DNA of 64,000 nt from Candidatus Micrarchaeota archaeon (GTDB lineage: Archaea > Micrarchaeota > Micrarchaeia > Norongarragalinales > Norongarragalinaceae). The stretch is taken from positions 1-64,000 of the forward strand of contig JACQQD010000011.1 of assembly GCA_016207165.1 (NCBI GenBank), given 5' to 3'. Numbering within the stretch: position 1 is the first letter of the stretch; every line of letters begins with the position of its first letter. The translations under genes and the position numbers were made by a program. This document shows positions 35,667 to 59,137 of the stretch, piece after piece. The notes beneath the pieces are model-generated. The model was not told the origin of the DNA and did no database searches. It saw only the letters and a program-made list of their open reading frames with translations.

Positions 35667-36173
35667 CTAGTACACGCTGAGTTTCTTCACGGAGGATAAG
35701 TCCGCCAATTGTTTGAGGACATTCGCCGAAGGCTTTTTGGATAAAAGCAGGAACAACTTGGGGTTCTCAAAGAGTTCGGGGTCCTCCGTCAGAATCTGGC
35801 GGATGGGGACGTGGTGTTCGGCAAGCACGCGCGTGACGTCCGCCACGATTCCGGGCTTGGCGGCGTTGGGCGGCTCGATTTCCAAGACTTGGATCTTGAA
35901 GACCGACGCCGACTTCAAAAAAAGCGGGCCGGCGGGCTGAACGGTTTCAAACACCGGCTTCAAAAAGGCGTCGTCCTGGATTCGGGACACAGTGGCCCGG
36001 ACGACTCTTCGGTCCACGCCGCACGAATCCGCCAAGGACACGTCCTTGACTTGCACGTCGCCGCAATAAACCTTCCCTTGGGAAACGCGAAGACCCAAGC
36101 CCAAGAGTTTCTTGGCCACCCTTTCTTGGGCGGGAAAACCGGCAAAGGAGTCCTTCAAGCGCTGCCAAATCAT
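35667..36173 (-). CDS. trpY: TrpY-like ACT-domain regulator (COG2150)
   Basis: FPAQERVA..LL.LGLRV, VDRRVV..T, PGIVADV...IRQ...DPEL; divergent from trpE. Confidence 0.8.
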   Translation of the reverse strand: MIWQRLKDSFAGFPAQERVAKKLLGLGLRVSQGKVYCGDVQVKDVSLADSCGVDRRVVRATVSRIQDDAFLKPVFETVQPAGPLFLKSASVFKIQVLEIEPPNAAKPGIVADVTRVLAEHHVPIRQILTEDPELFENPKLFLLLSKKPSANVLKQLADLSSVKKLSVY

Positions 36174-36175
36174 GA

Positions 36176-36211
36176 TGTACTTTTTTGTACTACAAAGATA
36201 TAAATAGTGCA
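36176..36211. promoter_or_regulatory. TRP-box-like operator and divergent TATA box
   Basis: TGTACT-N4-TGTACT (36176-36191), TATAAATA (36199-36206), AGTGCA (36206-36211). Confidence 0.7.
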
Positions 36212-36237
36212 CTGGGTAAGGATGGAACCGGTTAGAT

Positions 36238-36318
36238 ATGGGAGTCGGTTTTCTTTGGCCACAGCCAAACCAAGTCGCAGTCGCTGGACACGAAACTGGA
36301 TCCGCTGCAGGCCTTTGA
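36238..36318 (+). other. 26-codon uORF overlapping the trpE 5' end (MGVGFLWPQ...GL*)
   Basis: First ATG at a plausible distance from the TATA box; contains CTT TGG and ends CTT TGA; out of frame with trpE. Confidence 0.55.
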
Positions 36319-37579
36319 GCGCGTCTACGTCAACTCCGAGCATTGCTTCTTATTGGAATCCTTTGAAAAGGACGGAACCCTCGGGAGGTACTCGTTTTTG
36401 GGTTTCAATCCAAAGCACCACATCCGCGTCAAAAACGGCGTCACGCACTTTGACGACGAGGAACGCGACGAAGACCCGTTTTTGTTTTTGAAATCCTTTT
36501 GCATCTCTTCCAAAGCCCAAGGCTTTCGCGGCGGGGCGGTGGGCTACGTGTCGCATGACGCCATCCAGTACATCGAGGACTTCAAGCCAAAAACCGGAAG
36601 CTTTCCAGACTTGGAGTTCGGCGTGTATTTGGACGGCGTGATTTTCGACCACCAAAACCATTCCACCCGCTATGTGTACCACGACGAAAACCGGGTGGAC
36701 GAATTGGAGGCGTTGTTGCGGGAGGAACCCGGCGAACAAAAAACAAGCGTCAAAGTCTCGGAACCGTTTTTCGGAGAGGAAGAGTTCTGCGAGGCCGTGG
36801 GTAAAGCCAAGGAACGCATTGCCGCCGGCGACGCGTTTCAAATCGTTTTATCCAGGAAGTATCCCGTCAAATTCGAGGGCTCGAAAATGCCGTTCTACAA
36901 AGCCCTCCGGAAAACCAACCCGTCGCCGTACCAGTACGTGTTGAAAATGGGGGACCGGGAAATCGTGGGTTCCAGCCCCGAACAGTTGGTCCGCGTGGAG
37001 AACGGCGAGGCGACCACGTTTCCCATCGCCGGCACCCGTCCCAGAGGCAAGACCCCGGAATTGGATGAAGCCCTGGAAAAAGAGTTGGTTTCGGATCCCA
37101 AAGAACAAGCCGAACACGCCATGTTGGTGGATTTGGCGCGCAACGACATCGGCCGGATTTCAAAGGCAGGCACGGTAACCGTCAAGCGATACGCGGAAGT
37201 CAAGAAGTTCAGCCACGTCCAGCACCTCGTCTCGGAAGTCTCTGGAAAACTCAATGGGTCGGCGGTGGACGCGCTTAAATCCGTGTTTCCCGCGGGCACG
37301 CTTTCCGGAGCGCCCAAGCTTTCGGCATTGAAAATCATTGACCAACTGGAGCCCCAGCCGCGGGGGCCCTACGGCGGAGCCGTCGGATTTTTGTCTTTGG
37401 ATGGAGCCTGCGATTTCGCGATTTCCATCCGAACGCTTTTCTGCGACGGCAACCAAGGATTCGTCCAGGCTGGCGCCGGAATCGTCCAGGACTCCGTGGC
37501 CGAAAAAGAATTCTTGGAAACCCAGCACAAGGCGCAAGCGCTCTTGGACTGCTTGAAACAACAAACCGATTTGGCGTGA
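36238..37579 (+). CDS. trpE: anthranilate synthase component I (start requires a +1 shift or an indel)
   Basis: FLLES..GRYSF, FQIVLS, NPSPY, PIAGT, EHAMLVDLARND, PAGTLSGAPK; reading frame open from 36236. Confidence 0.92.
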
Positions 37580-38154
37580 AGAAAAAAATGAAACTATTGG
37601 TTTTGGATAACTTCGACTCGTTCACCTACAACCTCGTCCAACTCTTCCAAGCGCAAGGGGCGGATTGCCTGGTGTTTAGAAACAACGCATCCATGCACCA
37701 AATCGAGAAACTGCGGCCTGACGCCGTCTTGATTTCGCCGGGACCTGGAACCGTGGAGAACCCCAAGGACTTCGGCGTGTGCGCGCACGTTTTGAAGGCG
37801 CTGGACGTGCCGCAGTTGGGCGTGTGCTTGGGGCACCAGGGCTTGGCCTACGTCTTCGGAGGAAAAATCAGGCGGGACACACCGGTACACGGCAAGACGA
37901 GTTTGGTCACGCACAACGGCAAAGACGTTTTCAAGAACGTCAAGAACCCTTTTCGGGCCGCCCGCTACCACTCGCTGGTCGTGGACGCAAAAACCGTGCC
38001 GGATTGTCTGGAAGTCACGGCGCACGGGCCCAATCAGGAAATCATGGGGCTAAAGCATAAAGAAAAGCCGTTGTTTGGCGTGCAATTCCACCCCGAGTCC
38101 TTCATCACCGAAGACGGAGTAAAAATGGCGAGAAACTTTTTGGACTTGATTTGA
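37576..38154 (+). CDS. trpG: anthranilate synthase component II
   Basis: DNFDSFTYNL, ISPGPG, GVCLGHQ, RYHSL, QFHPES. Confidence 0.95.
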   Translation: MKKKMKLLVLDNFDSFTYNLVQLFQAQGADCLVFRNNASMHQIEKLRPDAVLISPGPGTVENPKDFGVCAHVLKALDVPQLGVCLGHQGLAYVFGGKIRRDTPVHGKTSLVTHNGKDVFKNVKNPFRAARYHSLVVDAKTVPDCLEVTAHGPNQEIMGLKHKEKPLFGVQFHPESFITEDGVKMARNFLDLI

Positions 38155-39147
38155 ATGGATGAATTGATCACCGCATTGGAAACCCGGGAAAACCTTTCCG
38201 AAAACCAATCGGAACAGCTGGCCGACGGGTTCCTGGACAACACGATGAAGCATGAAGACATCAAGCGCGTGCTTTTGGCGTTGAACGCCAAAGGGCCTTG
38301 CGTTGAAGAAGTCGTGGGCTTTGCGAAAAGCATGCGGAAGCATTCCATCAAAATCCACCCTCAACGCCAAGTCGTGGACACGTGCGGCACCGGAGGCGAC
38401 GGCGCCAGTACGTTTAACATTTCGACTACCGCGGCGTTCATTGTCGCGGCCTGCGGCCAGGCCGTTGCCAAACACGGCAACAAAAGCGTTTCAAGCCAAA
38501 GCGGGTCCGCCGACGTCTTGGATGCGCTTGGATTGAACATCCACGTGCCGCCTGAAAAAACGCAGGACATGATTGACGAAACGGATTTTGGCTTCCTCTT
38601 TGCGCCGTTGTACCATCCGGCCATGAAGCACGTGGCGCCGGTGAGAAAAGAGTTGGGCGTGAAAACCATCTTCAATCTATTGGGCCCGCTGACGAACCCA
38701 GCCAGCGCCCAATTTCAAGTCATCGGCGCGTACGATGCCAAAACGCAGGCGTTGCTGGCGGAAGCCGTAAAACGGTTGGGCACGCAACGGACGTTGGTGG
38801 TGAAAGGCGAGAAGCTAGACGAAGCCGGTTTTGGTAAAACCCAGGTCTTGGATGTGACCAAAAAGGGCATTGATGCATTTGAATTGCATTCCGAGGAATT
38901 CGGGCTGAAAGGCGCCGTTGCGGATTTAGTGGTTGAAAACGCCAAGCAAAGCGCCTTGTTTGTCCGCCAGGCGCTGCAGGATGACGGGGTCAAAAGCAGG
39001 GTGGCGGCACTTAACGCCGCGTTGGCGTTGTATGCGGCCGGGAAGGCGGAAACCGTTCAAGAGGGGTTCACCAAAGCCAAAAACGTCTTGAATTCGGGCC
39101 GCGCCATGTTCAAACTCCAGGAAGCCGTGTCGGTGTCCAAGCTATGA
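38155..39147 (+). CDS. trpD: anthranilate phosphoribosyltransferase
   Basis: DTCGTGGDG..TFNIST, KHGN, GSAD, NLLGPLTNP. Confidence 0.95.
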   Translation: MDELITALETRENLSENQSEQLADGFLDNTMKHEDIKRVLLALNAKGPCVEEVVGFAKSMRKHSIKIHPQRQVVDTCGTGGDGASTFNISTTAAFIVAACGQAVAKHGNKSVSSQSGSADVLDALGLNIHVPPEKTQDMIDETDFGFLFAPLYHPAMKHVAPVRKELGVKTIFNLLGPLTNPASAQFQVIGAYDAKTQALLAEAVKRLGTQRTLVVKGEKLDEAGFGKTQVLDVTKKGIDAFELHSEEFGLKGAVADLVVENAKQSALFVRQALQDDGVKSRVAALNAALALYAAGKAETVQEGFTKAKNVLNSGRAMFKLQEAVSVSKL

Positions 39148-39902
39148 CGTTTTTGGACGACGTGTTGCAAGAAGTTGAAGAAAACGTTTTGACGGGTTAC
39201 TACAAGAAGCGTCCGGGAAAACCCGTGAATGCAGGACAAGTCTCTCTGGAAGGACGGCTTGAATCCTCGTTTACGATCATCGCGGAAATCAAGCCCCAAT
39301 CCCCCACGCACGGAACGCTTTTTGAAGGCGACGCGGCCGAGTTGGCGGAAACCTACAAAAAAAACGGCGCGGGAGCCATTAGCGTGTTGTGCGAGCCGAA
39401 CCGTTTTGGCGGTTCGCTGGAAAACCTCTCCAAAGCCAAGAAAACGGGTTTGCCGGTTCTAGCCAAGGACTTCGTCCTTTCGTTCCATCAATTGGACGCG
39501 TACAAGGCGTTTGGCGCGGACGCCGTGCTTCTGATCCACGAATTGTTTGACGTGAAAAAAACCGAGGGAAGTCTTGACGAATTCATTGCCGCCGCCCACG
39601 AAAAAAAGTTGGAAGTCGTCTTGGAAGTGCATGCCCGGCACGGCTTGGAGGAAGCGGTGCAGACAAAAGCGGACGTGATTGGCATCAACAACCGGGACCT
39701 GTACACCCTGGCGCTAAACCCCTTGCATTACCAAAACGTGTTAGGCGACATTCAACCGGACCGGCCCATCATTGCCGAAAGCGGGTTTAAGTCCAAAGAA
39801 GACCTGGAAATAGCCAAAGCCGTGGGCATCAACGGCGTGCTGGTGGGAACGGCGCTCCTGGAAAGCGGCGACCCCGGCAAATCATTGAGGGAATTGTTGT
39901 GA
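39144..39902 (+). CDS. trpC: indole-3-glycerol-phosphate synthase
   Basis: [32 protein letters not shown]. Confidence 0.95.
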
Positions 39903-41035
39903 CGTACTTCGGCTCGTTTGGCGGCATGTACGTGCCGGAAACCTTGGTCGCGCCGCTGCAGCGCATCCAGCGCGAGTACGCCAAACGCAAAAACGATTCC
40001 CTGTTTCAAACCAAGTTCCAGCAACTGTTGCGCGAATACGCGGGAAGGCCTTCGCCCCTGTATTTCGCGGAAAAACTGTCGAAAGCCTACGGCTGCAAGA
40101 TTTACCTGAAACGCGAGGACCAGCTTTACACCGGCTCGCACAAAATCAACAACGCCTTGGGCCAAAGCCTGTTTGCCAAATCACTTGGCGCAGAGCGGGT
40201 GATTGCAGAAACTGGGGCGGGACAGCATGGCGTGGCAACAGCCACCGCGTGCGCGCTGTTGGGATTGAAGTGCGTGGTGTACATGGGGTCGGAAGACGTC
40301 AAGCGCCAGTACTTGAACGTTCAACGCATGAAGTTGCTTGGAGCGGAAGTTCGGCCCGTGGATTCGGGGTCCAAGACGCTGAAAGACGCCATCAACGAAG
40401 CGCTTCGCGACTGGGTGGCACAACCGGAAAGCTATTACTTGATTGGTTCCGTCGTTGGGCCGTCGCCTTACCCTGAAATGGTGCGGGACTTTCAACGCGT
40501 GATTGGCGACGAGACCCGAGAACAAGTCATGCAACGCGAGGGAAAGCTTCCCGACGTGTTGGTGGCGTGCGTGGGTGGCGGCTCGAATGCCATGGGCTTG
40601 TTTTATCCGTTCAAAGACGAGCATACCGTCAAGAAAATCGGGGTGGAAGCCTACGGCGCCGCATCGCTTTGCTTTGGAAAAACAGGCGTGCTGCACGGCG
40701 CGAAAACCAAGGTGCTCCAAGACGCCGACGGACAAATCATGGAGACGCACAGCATTTCAGCGGGGTTGGACTACTCGGCCGTAGGCCCCGAACATGCATT
40801 CTTTCAGGAAACCGGGATCGCGGACTACTCGGCGGTCAACGACGAACAGGCACTCGCCGCATTCCGGGAATTATCCATTCAAGAAGGCATCATTCCGGCG
40901 TTGGAATCCGCGCACGCCGTAGCCAAAGGCCTGGATTTGGCGCAGATCCTGGACAAGGACCAAATCATGGTCATCAACTTGAGCGGCCGCGGCGACAAAG
41001 ATACCCATGCCCTTGAAGCGCTTGGACTGAAATGA
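39899..41035 (+). CDS. trpB: tryptophan synthase beta chain
   Basis: [46 protein letters not shown]. Confidence 0.97.
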
Positions 41036-41093
41036 AACGAAAAAATCGGAAATAGATTGGGCGACGAAAAAAATCAAAAAAAAATAAGAAAAA

Positions 41094-41852
41094 ATGGTTT
41101 TGAAGAAAATGAAGTTCACGCGTCTTTTTGAATCCAAGAAATTCGTCTTTTTGCCCTACGTGTGCTTGGGCTACCCCACCCTTCAAGAAAGCATCCAAAT
41201 CGTGAAAACCCTGGAACCCTTTGCCGACGGGTTCGAACTGGGCATACCGTTCTCCGACCCGGTGGCGGACGGCCCAGTGCTTCAAGCCGCCACGCAAGCC
41301 GCATTGAAAAACGGCTTCCACGTAACAGACGCGTTTCGGGCCATCAGGGAAATCCGTTCGTTCACGCAAAAGCCTCTGGCCGTCATGACGTACCTCAATC
41401 CGGTGCTGGCCTACGGCTTGGAAAAATTCGCTTCCGATGCGCAAAACGCGGGCGCGGATGCCGTCATTGTGCCGGATTCGCCCATGGAGGAAAACGATTC
41501 GCTTCAGGCCGCGTGTTCCGGGAAACTGGAAGTGCCGCTGTTCGTTTCCCCTACCACGCCGGATTCGCGGGCCGCCAAGATTTCGGAAAAAGCGCAAGGC
41601 TTCGTGTACGGCATTGCCGTGAAAGGCGTGACTGGCGCACGAGAAAACGCCGCAAAGGACATGCAGGCGTTAGTCGGCAAAGTCAAAAACAAGCCCGTCG
41701 CCATCGGTTTCGGCATTTCGAAAGCCGAACACGTCCAAGCCGTAAAAAATTCAGGCGCGAGAGGATTCATCGTGGGCAGCCAAATCGTGAAAGCGTACAA
41801 CGAATCCAAACTGGACGGGGTAAAACAATTCGCAAAATCCCTATCGCCATAG
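41094..41852 (+). CDS. trpA: tryptophan synthase alpha chain
   Basis: ELGIPFSDPVADGP, MTYLN, GVTGAR, GFGIS. Confidence 0.96.
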   Translation: MVLKKMKFTRLFESKKFVFLPYVCLGYPTLQESIQIVKTLEPFADGFELGIPFSDPVADGPVLQAATQAALKNGFHVTDAFRAIREIRSFTQKPLAVMTYLNPVLAYGLEKFASDAQNAGADAVIVPDSPMEENDSLQAACSGKLEVPLFVSPTTPDSRAAKISEKAQGFVYGIAVKGVTGARENAAKDMQALVGKVKNKPVAIGFGISKAEHVQAVKNSGARGFIVGSQIVKAYNESKLDGVKQFAKSLSP

Positions 41853-56629: not shown

Positions 56630-59137
56630 ATGAAGGTCTTCTTGTTTTTCGCGCTCCTTCTTGCAACCGCTTCCGCCGTTGCCGTCGAAAGCGTGCAGGG
56701 GATTGGACCGAAAAACCCCACCCTTTTTGAACCCGTTGAATTCAAGATCCGTTTTTCCGCCAACCTTGGAGATGAAGCACAAGGAACCACGCACAATTAC
56801 TGGCTGATTCTTGAAGACCAAAACCATGAGCGTGCCGTGGTTCGCCCGTACGGCGACTTTAGCTACTACGAGGATTTCACCGGATACAAAACAATCACCC
56901 TCCGCGAATCCCTGAACATCGAACCCAAATACACGGGCAAGCCCCTGAAAGCCGCGATCGCGTGGAGCGTTCAAGACGACACACAAACCCAATCGGGAAA
57001 AGCGTATTGGGGAAACGCCAACGACTTCAAAAACGACGTCATCGTCTTTCAAGCACCGGCTTCCGACCAAGAAACCGTTGGAGGCGTGTTGCTGGATTTC
57101 GTCCGAGAAAAATACGCCCGGAGGGATTTTCAAGCCATTCATGACGCGTTGTTCTTGCGACCCATGGCCAAGTTGGACTCGCACGCGTGCGACATCAACG
57201 CGTACTGGGTCATGAGCCAGGTCGCCATCAAGAAAAACCCGTTTCAAGACGACGAATTCTACGACAACACGCGGCACCCGAAAACGGTTTTTGAAAACTG
57301 GGAGAACTGCCTCGAGGAAACCAAGAATCGGTTCACCCAGACGCTCTCCAGCGCCGTGATCCTGGACAAAAAAGAAAAGGATGAGTACGTGCTGGCGTTG
57401 AACACCCAAACCGGTTTTCCAACGAGCACTACGTTGAACGTCCGCAACTCCAAAAACCAGGAAGTGCGGATTCGCTTGGCGGACGTAGGCGCCCAGCAAG
57501 TCCGGTTGGAGCTTGACGCCAGCGGCGAGTCCCTTCCTTTGAACCAAGACGGCGTGCTGAAAACGGGTTTGACTCCCGAAGAACTTGAACAGCATCCGCT
57601 GAACAACCAAAACCTCGGATTGACGTTTGAACTGAAAGCCGTCAAAGCGCCCCTGGTTCTTCTATCCGTCAAGCGGGCTTCAGGACAACTTGACCGCAAC
57701 GGCAACTGCCGTTTTTTCGCCGGCAAACCAGACGCCGCAATCCACGTGGCCGTGGCCCCCCACGAATACCGAGGCAACCAAGAAAAATTCGAAAAAGACC
57801 TGCAAAAAGCCGTGTGGCTCCTGGAGCAAACCCTTCAAGAACGGTTTGACCAAATCAAGATCAGCGTGCTGGAATCCGAAGTGCCCTGCGTGAAAAAAAA
57901 CCGGCATCTGTTTTGCGACACGTCCTTCGCGCAAGCGGCCTGCAACACGGACTACGTGTACGTCCACGCCAACGAGCAACCCTTCCAAAAAGGCGACAAG
58001 ACATTGTTGCGCGGCATACGGCAAGGCAATCAAGCCAACTGCCCGGCGAACGCCCCCGAATGCTTCCGCCACGAATTGGGCCACCTCTGGTTCGGCCTCT
58101 CCGACCGGTACTGCTGCGACGGCGGCTACTTTCCGCCCACCGTTTACGCCGACGAAGCGAAATGCCGCTCCACCGTGCAAAGATTGTACTCTAAAACATC
58201 TGCCGAACTTCAAAAAAAGTTCACCCGCCACCTGGCCAGCTTCCTGGACAAAGAAACCGCCCCCGACGGAGAGTCCGTCTTGAACCCCTACGGCTTGGAC
58301 GCGACGCTGTTTTCCTTGTCCAGCCAACAACGCGCACCGCTGCTTAAAACCCCACAATGCAAGTCGTTCCAAGACGTCCACGAAAAAAAGCGATTCATTT
58401 TCAGTCAGGACTCCGTCATGAAAAAAAATGCGTACCCCGCGTTTTCCATCGACGAATTGGCCGCCGTGGACCGCGTCTTGAAGGACCCAGAAGGCAAAAA
58501 GACGGGACCAATCCAAGCGGAAAACGCAAAAAGCCTGGAATTCGATGGCCACCGAGCCAAAAAAGTCTTGCACGCGAAACTGGAATTCCACGACAACAAG
58601 CTCGCCATAACGGACGCCATCCTGCAGTACGCCGACGCGCAACCCACCCTCATTTCGCAACCCGGAGGCATCCAAATCGCTTTTTTTGACGCCGACGGCC
58701 AAAGCGTGGTCGTACACGCCATCCCGGATCCCCGGCACGTATTCATTGACGACTTTTCAAAAGAAGAATTGACGGGCGGTTTCTTCGTGGACCCCGACGC
58801 CTCTTTTTCGCTGCGCTTGCCGTTCCCGGAGGAAGCAAAAACCCTGGAGTTTTACGACGAAAGCGGCTTGCTTTTGCGCACGGACGTTGACGGCGTGACG
58901 TCCAATTTCTGTCAAACCAGGACCGTCAAAGAGGATGACTACTGCGAACCGTTGTGCCAAAGCGACGCGGACTGCACAACCGTCAACGCCGTTCCGGCAT
59001 CGGTCGCGCCAACGCCTGCACCGCCTATCCAGCCCGCGTCAACGACGTCCGCCGACGCATTTCCAGTCTACGCCACGGCGTTTCTCGTGGTTCTGGTGCT
59101 AGCCTTCTACGCCGTGTTTTGGAGGAAAACGGCGTGA
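56630..59137 (+). CDS. secreted, C-terminally anchored zinc metallopeptidase
   Basis: Signal peptide, HELGHLWFGLSDRY, Cys pairs, Pro/Ala linker, C-terminal TM helix plus RK. Confidence 0.78.
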   Translation: MKVFLFFALLLATASAVAVESVQGIGPKNPTLFEPVEFKIRFSANLGDEAQGTTHNYWLILEDQNHERAVVRPYGDFSYYEDFTGYKTITLRESLNIEPKYTGKPLKAAIAWSVQDDTQTQSGKAYWGNANDFKNDVIVFQAPASDQETVGGVLLDFVREKYARRDFQAIHDALFLRPMAKLDSHACDINAYWVMSQVAIKKNPFQDDEFYDNTRHPKTVFENWENCLEETKNRFTQTLSSAVILDKKEKDEYVLALNTQTGFPTSTTLNVRNSKNQEVRIRLADVGAQQVRLELDASGESLPLNQDGVLKTGLTPEELEQHPLNNQNLGLTFELKAVKAPLVLLSVKRASGQLDRNGNCRFFAGKPDAAIHVAVAPHEYRGNQEKFEKDLQKAVWLLEQTLQERFDQIKISVLESEVPCVKKNRHLFCDTSFAQAACNTDYVYVHANEQPFQKGDKTLLRGIRQGNQANCPANAPECFRHELGHLWFGLSDRYCCDGGYFPPTVYADEAKCRSTVQRLYSKTSAELQKKFTRHLASFLDKETAPDGESVLNPYGLDATLFSLSSQQRAPLLKTPQCKSFQDVHEKKRFIFSQDSVMKKNAYPAFSIDELAAVDRVLKDPEGKKTGPIQAENAKSLEFDGHRAKKVLHAKLEFHDNKLAITDAILQYADAQPTLISQPGGIQIAFFDADGQSVVVHAIPDPRHVFIDDFSKEELTGGFFVDPDASFSLRLPFPEEAKTLEFYDESGLLLRTDVDGVTSNFCQTRTVKEDDYCEPLCQSDADCTTVNAVPASVAPTPAPPIQPASTTSADAFPVYATAFLVVLVLAFYAVFWRKTA

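Follow-up and report, generated by a model that had tools for sequence, protein, structure and literature searches.

The DNA studied here, called the window throughout, is a stretch of 64,000 nucleotides from a Candidatus Micrarchaeota archaeon (contig JACQQD010000011.1), namely contig C11 of a 12-contig, 1.27-Mb genome, G000. Within it lies trpE, the gene for anthranilate synthase component I and the first gene of a trpEGDCBA operon, whose reading frame is preceded by a short leader open reading frame (ORF) that begins one base out of frame. We propose that a programmed +1 frameshift at CUU-UGG in this leader couples translation of trpEGDCBA to the supply of Trp-tRNA. We infer the shift, its site and its dependence on tryptophan from sequence comparisons, and we give this reading a probability of roughly 65%. 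The original prediction, made from the letters of the window, had put forward the same +1 slip at CTT-TGG into TrpE, with Trp supply as the likely signal. Our comparisons support this central idea, which is the only model that fits all of the comparative data assembled here, the Trp dependence being its conjectural part.

The trpE frame and its out-of-frame leader

The elements of the locus are listed below in order of position.

36233..36235, + strand: TAG that closes the TrpE frame upstream, read from the sequence
36238..36318, + strand: leader ORF in the 0 frame, with ATG, 26 codons, one Trp codon (codon 7) and the stop TGA at 36316-18
36240..36250, + strand: purine-rich stretch complementary to the 3' end of the organism's own 16S rRNA (GGGAG at 36240-44, GGTT at 36247-50), a candidate stimulator
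36253..36259, + strand: proposed shift heptamer CTT TGG C, with CUU (Leu) in the ribosomal peptidyl (P) site and UGG (Trp) in the aminoacyl (A) site; after the shift, UUU in the P site and GGC (Gly) in the A site
36257..37579, + strand: reading frame of TrpE (anthranilate synthase component I), which runs from the post-shift GGC up to the stop, identified by Pfam, TIGR01820 and the ratio of nonsynonymous to synonymous substitution rates (dN/dS)
36353..36355, + strand: TTG, the first canonical in-frame start, which is the second L of F-L-L-E-S (residue 40)

The TrpE frame is open from 36236, directly behind the TAG, where it reads ATA TGG GAG TCG GTT TTC TTT GGC, and it continues for 447 codons to its end at 37579. 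The claim that it holds no ATG, GTG or TTG until the conserved LLES motif proved exact. Both domains expected of anthranilate synthase component I are present over their cut-offs, the chorismate-binding domain PF00425 with E 1e-90 and the N-terminal domain PF04715 (Anth_synt_I_N) with E 2e-26. The archaeal TrpE profile TIGR01820 (TrpE-arch) is matched with 472 bits (E 2e-141), under its equivalog cut-off of 512. Because the Anth_synt_I_N match begins at residue 21 and the TIGR01820 match at residue 23, a start at residue 40 would lose conserved sequence, and by this measure the TTG at 36353 is too internal for a complete enzyme.

The ATG at 36238-40 lies one base behind the TrpE frame and is followed by GGA GTC GGT TTT CTT (36253-55) TGG (36256-58) C. 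When T36256 is skipped, the next codon is GGC (36257-59), which is in the TrpE frame. This order of codons, including the +1 step to GGC, had been described correctly in the original prediction. Translated without a shift, the leader would yield a putative product that ends at the TGA. It had also been suggested that CTT TGA at 36313-18 offers a second chance for the shift. The leader ORF does end there, but the proposed role did not hold up, as the position of the 0-frame stop is not conserved: it lies 1-26 codons past TGG across the three archaeal groups described below. We rejected this second site, since CTT TGA is a by-product of a conserved Phe-Glu of TrpE (TTT GAG). The ATA at 36236 was likewise rejected as a start codon, because its position is not conserved and the codon after the in-frame stop is CGA in the related genome G002 and GCA in G009.

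An error in the sequence or a decaying gene could produce an offset of this kind, either because the assembly is wrong by one base in the GGG run that follows the ATG, or because trpE is pseudogenising in a reduced symbiont genome. One G fewer after the ATG gives an ordinary start, which the original prediction had raised as its own caveat; in addition, trpE of G009 is split mid-gene and a trpE match was found in only 9 of the 68 genomes of the order. However, Logan contigs from the sequencing runs X1, X2 and X3 span 36228-36268 with no inserted or missing letters. X1 is possibly the source run, X2 and X3 are other samples, all come from one study, and these are assembled contigs rather than raw reads; their loose ends resemble adaptor remnants, and a contig from a further run, X4, reaches only to 36242. 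The same offset recurs in other species and phyla, which together with the contigs refutes the idea of an extra G introduced by sequencing. As for decay, the trpEGDCBA operon is intact, and comparison of G000 with the same-genus genomes G002 and G001 over the open frame of about 440 codons gave dN/dS values of 0.10-0.16 (dS 1.6-2.3, which is saturated). The TrpE frame is therefore under strong purifying selection. An artefact or a pseudogene is very improbable on these grounds, and the out-of-frame layout is real.

The same-genus relatives also bear on where the frame changes. In a quick TrpE tree, G000 falls outside G002, and G002 falls outside a clade formed by G001 and three metagenome contigs, with Shimodaira-Hasegawa-like approximate likelihood ratio test (SH-aLRT) values of 97-100. 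In the G001 clade an in-frame ATG lies further upstream, and the site reads GGG TTC CTG GGC, GGC TTC CTG GGC or GGC TTT TTG GGC, variants that differ synonymously and all encode G-F-L-G. G000 and G002 carry GGT TTT CTT T GGC, which gives G-F-L-G when it is read in the 0 frame up to CTT and in the +1 frame afterwards, whereas the TrpE frame gives V-F-F-G. This match suggests that the selected peptide is the one read in the 0 frame to the Leu codon and in the +1 frame from there on. The in-frame G001 clade seems to descend from an ancestor in which the extra T was lost. When the substitutions in the short leaders were sorted by frame, 'synonymous' changes appeared in either frame, in a region too short and too conserved to favour one of them.

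Recurrence of the layout across archaea

We read the 5' ends of trpE in genomes and contigs found by search, which provided 197 classified loci. The Micrarchaeota-type set comprises 46 loci with enough upstream sequence, three of which are metagenome contigs assigned by 68-70% identity only. The two groups outside Micrarchaeota were found through a metagenome scan with this TrpE and then a genome scan with one of its hits; among 80 loci from the genome scan, the N-terminus is missing from three and the frame is broken behind the leader in one, L132. At 162 of the 197 loci, a start codon lies one base behind the TrpE frame and at most 12 codons before a TGG in its own frame. The shared layout is a good start codon, 4-9 codons, [C/T/A]TT TGG, and then a +1 step into TrpE. 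Besides this recurrence, two overlapping frames of which the downstream one is conserved and has no start, as in programmed +1 frameshifting in general, are present in six species. The layout is not universal, as eight more distant TrpE loci of the methanogen phylum have ordinary in-frame starts and no leader.

Among Micrarchaeota the leader was observed at 12 of the 46 loci. It starts with ATG in ten cases, GTG in one and TTG in one, and after 5-9 codons it reaches CTT TGG (ten), TTT TGG (one) or CAT TGG (one). Six of the twelve (L001, L002, L006, L012, L034 and L049, in the genomes G000, G002, G009, G042, G180 and G165) have no in-frame ATG, GTG or TTG between the upstream stop and the site, and in G000, G009 and G042 there is no canonical in-frame start anywhere before LLES. 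Alignment of the 5' ends of related trpE genes had been suggested as a check on the original prediction; the outcome was favourable, as an out-of-frame start with NTT-TGG (CAT-TGG in L049) recurs in five further Micrarchaeota species that lack an in-frame start before the site. A Shine-Dalgarno sequence (AGGTGA, GAGGTG) stands 4-6 nucleotides before the out-of-frame start in several Micrarchaeota. In L049 the overlapping TrpE-frame Phe has changed to Ile (ATT GGC), and the 0-frame TGG is kept. The other 34 loci are leaderless, with an ordinary ATG about three codons past the position of the site, which implies that the leader is an add-on before a conserved enzyme. On contig C42 of G009 (L006 and L011), whose genome is 71% complete, the trpE match is divided into two parts that lie in different frames (query residues 2-275 and 310-443), either through an assembly error or because the gene is broken.

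The leader is present at all 90 loci of the Methanobacteriaceae clade, with P-site TTT in 89 and CTT in one, and with an ATG start in 88. An AGGTGA-type Shine-Dalgarno sequence, a gap of 4-6 nucleotides, the ATG, five codons and TTT TGG follow one another at 88 of the 90. The TGA of the TrpE frame overlaps the leader ATG, and the segment GTGAAT..TTTTGG is nearly invariant. Carriers include Methanobacterium oryzae DSM 11106, Methanobacterium sp. ACI-7, Methanosphaera stadtmanae and a Methanothermobacter metagenome-assembled genome (MAG). Four of the 90 loci (L135, L150, L165 and L170) have a stop, TGA or TAG, directly after TGG in the 0 frame, so that the unshifted product ends at Trp. The MAG locus L139 has one base fewer between the ATG and GTGAAT, which brings the ATG served by the Shine-Dalgarno sequence into the TrpE frame; among relatives of the frameshift type, this locus resembles a natural 'in-frame revertant'. 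In L132, also from a MAG, the TrpE frame is interrupted shortly past the leader, and our guess is an indel error in the assembly.

In the TrpE tree, Methanobacteriaceae join one Micrarchaeota lineage with an SH-aLRT value of 95 (L012 of G042 with L056, L155, L171, L175 and L178), and this grouping is nested among the Micrarchaeota sequences. The two groups also have similar leaders, AAA GGC ... TGT [C/T]TT TGG C. This grouping may reflect a transfer of trpE together with its leader.

All 60 loci of the Nitrosopumilaceae clade have the leader, which consists of an ATG and three or four codons, followed by ATT (35), CTT (24) or TTT (one) in the P site and TGG. In the one Nitrosopumilus example considered, the leader ATG lies 23 nucleotides past the TATA box, as expected for a leaderless mRNA. 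Since Shine-Dalgarno or TATA spacing fits it, the out-of-frame start is the well-placed one. The Nitrosopumilaceae-like subgroup L094, L100, L113, L121 and L125 carries ATGAATGG, in which the first ATG is in the leader frame and is followed by CGT CTT TGG, and a second ATG is in the TrpE frame directly past TGA. At these five loci both routes of initiation seem to be open.

The main rival to a programmed shift is that the leader encodes an overlapping, Trp-containing peptide with no recoding and that TrpE starts separately. The start would be an in-frame GTG in the methanogens and Nitrosopumilaceae, and in Micrarchaeota a codon that is non-canonical or lies downstream, such as ATA 36236 or a CTG in G000. 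An in-frame GTG or ATG before the site is indeed found in 156 of the 162 leaders, an ATA stands directly past the TAG in G000, and downstream in-frame TTGs occur in L002 and L034. On the other hand, the six Micrarchaeota species lack a canonical in-frame start before the site, three of them up to LLES, and the codons past the in-frame stop in G000, G002 and G009 (ATA, CGA and GCA) do not amount to a conserved start. The Shine-Dalgarno or TATA spacing suits the out-of-frame start and not the GTG, and the G-F-L-G match speaks for reading in the 0 frame as far as CTT. Moreover, a ribosome stalled at UGG would cover a GTG 9 nucleotides upstream, and starvation would then be expected to lower TrpE. 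A separate start, which fits the methanogen and Nitrosopumilaceae genes and not the six Micrarchaeota genes, therefore appears unlikely as an explanation of the whole pattern.

A proposed frameshift that could respond to tryptophan

Under the programmed-shift proposal, translation would begin at ATG 36238 and proceed through five sense codons in the 0 frame. The P site would then hold peptidyl-tRNA-Leu(GAG) paired with CUU, and the A site would present UGG, the leader's sole Trp codon. When charged tRNA-Trp is plentiful, UGG would be read and translation would end after 26 codons with a useless peptide. When charged tRNA-Trp is scarce, the A site would stay empty and the Leu-tRNA could re-pair one base forward on UUU. 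GGC would be read next and the ribosome would continue in the TrpE frame, giving a product with the predicted beginning M-G-V-G-F-L-G-H-S-Q. As the genes behind trpE are joined to it by overlapping or abutting ends, translation of all of trpEGDCBA could be carried along. The site is always 4-9 codons from the start and, more speculatively, a waiting ribosome would cover the start codon, so that no second ribosome would load and collide with it.

Genes for the tRNAs concerned were found in G000. A gene for tRNA-Leu(GAG) is located on contig C6, so CUU would be read by G-U wobble, and after the +1 step the GAG anticodon is predicted to be able to pair with UUU (G-U, A-U, G-U). The tRNA-Leu(GAG) gene, at C6:120659 to about 120790, has an insert in the T-arm region; neither ARAGORN nor the Rfam tRNA search detected it, and it was recovered through its similarity to other Leu tRNAs. 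A tRNA-Leu(CAA) gene at C12, about 58620-58754, has an intron after the anticodon. A gene for tRNA-Trp(CCA) is also present, at C1:179844-180062 with a 145-nucleotide intron. The 16S rRNA of this organism ends in GATCACCTCCT at its 3' end, and the 15 nucleotides before the P-site codon pair with this tail at -7.8 kcal/mol; of 100 further CTT TGG sites that are in frame in long ORFs of the genome, just 3 reach a value as low. In the relatives the pairing ranges from -4.6 to -9.9 kcal/mol; purine-rich sequence stands a few bases ahead of the P-site codon in every clade, in a register that differs among clades.

A change of frame could also arise before translation, if RNA polymerase dropped one U in the T runs so that part of the mRNA is in frame. 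Such runs do occur at the site, T4 and T3 in G000 and T5 in Methanobacteriaceae. However, RNA polymerase generally slips on runs longer than these, the run in Nitrosopumilaceae is no more than T3, and the runs in G000 are interrupted, all of which makes this source of the frame change highly improbable.

The genes and signals around trpE are as follows.

35667..36212, - strand: gene for a probable TrpY-family regulator (helix-turn-helix and ACT domain), divergent from trpE, identified by NF053754 and a weak Pfam ACT match
36198..36205, + strand: archaeal TATA-box-like ATATAAAT, 32 nucleotides before the leader ATG, a putative promoter judged from the sequence
37576..41852, + strand: trpG 37576-38154, trpD 38155-39147, trpC 39144-39902, trpB 39899-41035 and trpA 41094-41852, identified by NCBIfam matches

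The product of 35667..36212 matches TrpY_fam (NF053754) over the full profile length with E 3e-46 and 157 bits, against a curated cut-off of 180. A TATA-like box such as that at 36198-36205 also precedes trpE in G001, G002 and G009. A third-frame ATG at 36222-36224, which belongs to an ORF at 36207-36491 (94 codons), is located 16 nucleotides past the box; it is probably spurious and upstream of the transcript start. The first four junctions of the operon overlap or abut (GTGA, TGAATG, ATGA and GTGA). TrpE (counted from GGC), TrpG, TrpD, TrpC, TrpB and TrpA together contain one Trp in 1844 residues, compared with 10.3 per 1000 in the long ORFs of the genome (binomial P 1e-7). The UGG of the leader is nearly the sole Trp codon of the operon, and the operon would remain translatable under Trp shortage because its enzymes are nearly Trp-free. 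Elsewhere in the window, an ORF from ATG 1172, in the frame of the ORF 992-1534, overlaps an ORF at 1221-1649 with a weak match to a bacterial PH domain (region 1172-1649). The original prediction had seen an apparent indel near 1270 in this region; an indel is not demonstrated there, since these are overlapping ORFs, the second of which could begin at a plausible ATG near 1293.

The frameshift might equally be constitutive, a fixed low-efficiency 'translational correction' that keeps TrpE at a low level with no sensing of Trp. Correction of indels by frameshifting is listed in the available part of the 2016 Atkins review (PMC5009743), and TrpY already provides transcriptional control in a methanogen (PMC6737238, in the portion available), with a probable TrpY-family gene adjoining trpE here. 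Against this, UGG occupies the A site in every leader, including L049 with its changed overlapping Phe codon, although TGG was required by the search; trpE is the first gene of Trp synthesis and the enzymes of the operon are nearly free of Trp; and slow A-site decoding is a general driver of +1 shifts (PMC5009743, same portion). We consider a constitutive shift quite unlikely. Slow decoding of UGG under Trp shortage is suggested by the role of the gene and by the Trp-poor operon.

Several observations weigh against a programmed, Trp-responsive shift. Because TGG was required by the site search, its constancy is partly built into the count, and TGG arises automatically wherever Phe-Gly is written TTT GGN. 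The loci are kin and partly redundant, the distinct leaders being 12 in Micrarchaeota, 38 in Methanobacteriaceae and 21 in Nitrosopumilaceae. An in-frame start precedes the site in 6 of the 12 Micrarchaeota leaders, and an in-frame GTG (in some cases ATG) does so in all 90 Methanobacteriaceae and 60 Nitrosopumilaceae leaders, where an unshifted start is possible. In-frame TTGs also follow the site, one codon past it in L034 and about 11 codons past it in L002, and the trpE of G009 is broken mid-gene as well as being out of frame. In a crude set of 963 long ORFs, which may include wrong-frame ORFs, CTT TGG is not avoided (108 observed versus 58 expected; TTT TGG, 114 versus 88), suggesting that the dicodon alone is not strongly shift-prone. 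The tRNAs that read the P-site codons ATT, in Nitrosopumilaceae, and CAT, in L049, re-pair poorly after a +1 step. Finally, no stable RNA fold was predicted at 36226-36330 (z score +0.35; 122 of 200 shuffles fold as well). An Rfam search of 35900-36600 returned nothing up to E = 1 except one chance match (E 0.96), and a search for RNA sequencing runs containing 35900-37100 found none.

Taken together, the comparisons raise a broader possibility, namely that this is an old and widespread archaeal switch, present in Micrarchaeota, Methanobacteriaceae and Nitrosopumilaceae, in which a recoding leader of 5-10 codons is fused to trpE and a wait at a single UGG is turned into a +1 change of frame. 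If so, it would be the first known case in which natural 'hungry-codon' frameshifting controls an amino-acid pathway, and an archaeal counterpart of bacterial trp attenuation. For this wider claim we regard the odds as even. To our knowledge, no ribosome-based amino-acid sensor has been established in archaea. The natural use of 'hungry-codon' frameshifting is described as unclear in the available part of the 2016 review (PMC5009743). If the proposal is true, both of these gaps would be answered, with starvation-induced frameshifting harnessed as a regulator that combines mechanics in the style of prfB and Ty1 with the logic of the trp attenuator. As for annotation, gene-prediction programs will shorten trpE or misplace its start in these lineages, and pathway-completeness calls for small symbiotic archaea can err. 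The layout is found in cultured methanogens and ammonia oxidisers, which makes the idea directly testable.

Comparison with known systems

The bacterial gene prfB, which encodes release factor 2, is controlled by an autoregulatory +1 frameshift in which CUU is followed by U, tRNA-Leu(GAG) re-pairs on UUU, and UGA occupies the A site. The shift is triggered by a slow A site, a stretch complementary to the 3' end of 16S rRNA lies just upstream, and the rate of shifting serves as a gauge of how much of the factor decoding the A site is available, as it would in the leader. The trpE leader resembles prfB in its P-site CUU and following U (CTT T at 36253-56), in a tRNA-Leu(GAG) predicted to be able to re-pair on UUU, and in a stretch complementary to the 16S rRNA 3' end just upstream of the P site, a likeness that does not extend to an established match in spacing or register. 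In contrast to prfB, the A site holds the sense codon UGG and not the stop UGA, the molecule sensed would be charged tRNA-Trp and not a release factor, the site is only 4-9 codons from the start, and the host is an archaeon.

With the yeast Ty1 and ABP140 sites (CUU_AGG_C; PMC5009743, in the available part) the leader shares a heptamer that places CUU in the P site and, in the A site, a sense codon, which in the leader would be 'hungry' under Trp shortage. RNA structure is not needed at those sites, and none was predicted here. Slow A-site codons favour +1 shifts in general, and the Ty1 site gives about 40% frameshifting (PMC5009743, in the same part). The A-site codon of Ty1 is always slow, however, because its tRNA is rare, whereas the slowness of UGG in the leader would follow the amino-acid supply and so provide a metabolic switch.

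Like antizyme (OAZ), the leader would use a +1 shift as the sensor in a feedback loop of its own pathway (PMC5009743, in the part available). OAZ differs in being eukaryotic, in sensing polyamines, in using a stop codon as its shift site and in having stimulators in both the RNA and the nascent peptide. Frameshifting at Trp codons is also induced by Trp shortage in human cancer cells (PMC13751296, in the portion available); the change of frame at UGG is an error there, with aberrant products, while in the archaeal leader it would be a selected and conserved route to the normal enzyme.

What is known of archaeal trp control is mainly TrpY, which represses trpEGCFBAD in Methanothermobacter (PMC6737238, in the portion available). 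The window is like Methanothermobacter in that a probable trpY-family gene is divergent from trpE. TrpY controls transcription in response to free Trp, whereas the leader would work at the level of translation, with charged tRNA-Trp as its signal. In the main text of the papers covered by our literature searches, neither a frameshift nor a recoding leader on trpE is described, and the words 'trpE' and 'anthranilate' do not occur in the first 300,000 characters of PMC5009743.

In bacterial trpL attenuation (Rfam Trp_leader), a ribosome at the Trp codons of a leader reports the level of charged tRNA-Trp and sets the expression of trpE and its operon, as is proposed for the archaeal leader. Unlike trpL, the archaeal leader has one Trp codon and not a tandem, and it overlaps trpE and is fused to it. 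It also has no terminator or antiterminator, judging from the Rfam search and the fold prediction, and its output would be a change of frame and not continued transcription. The layout is a variant of these known kinds of system, and a member of neither the prfB/Ty1-type sites nor the bacterial trp leaders.

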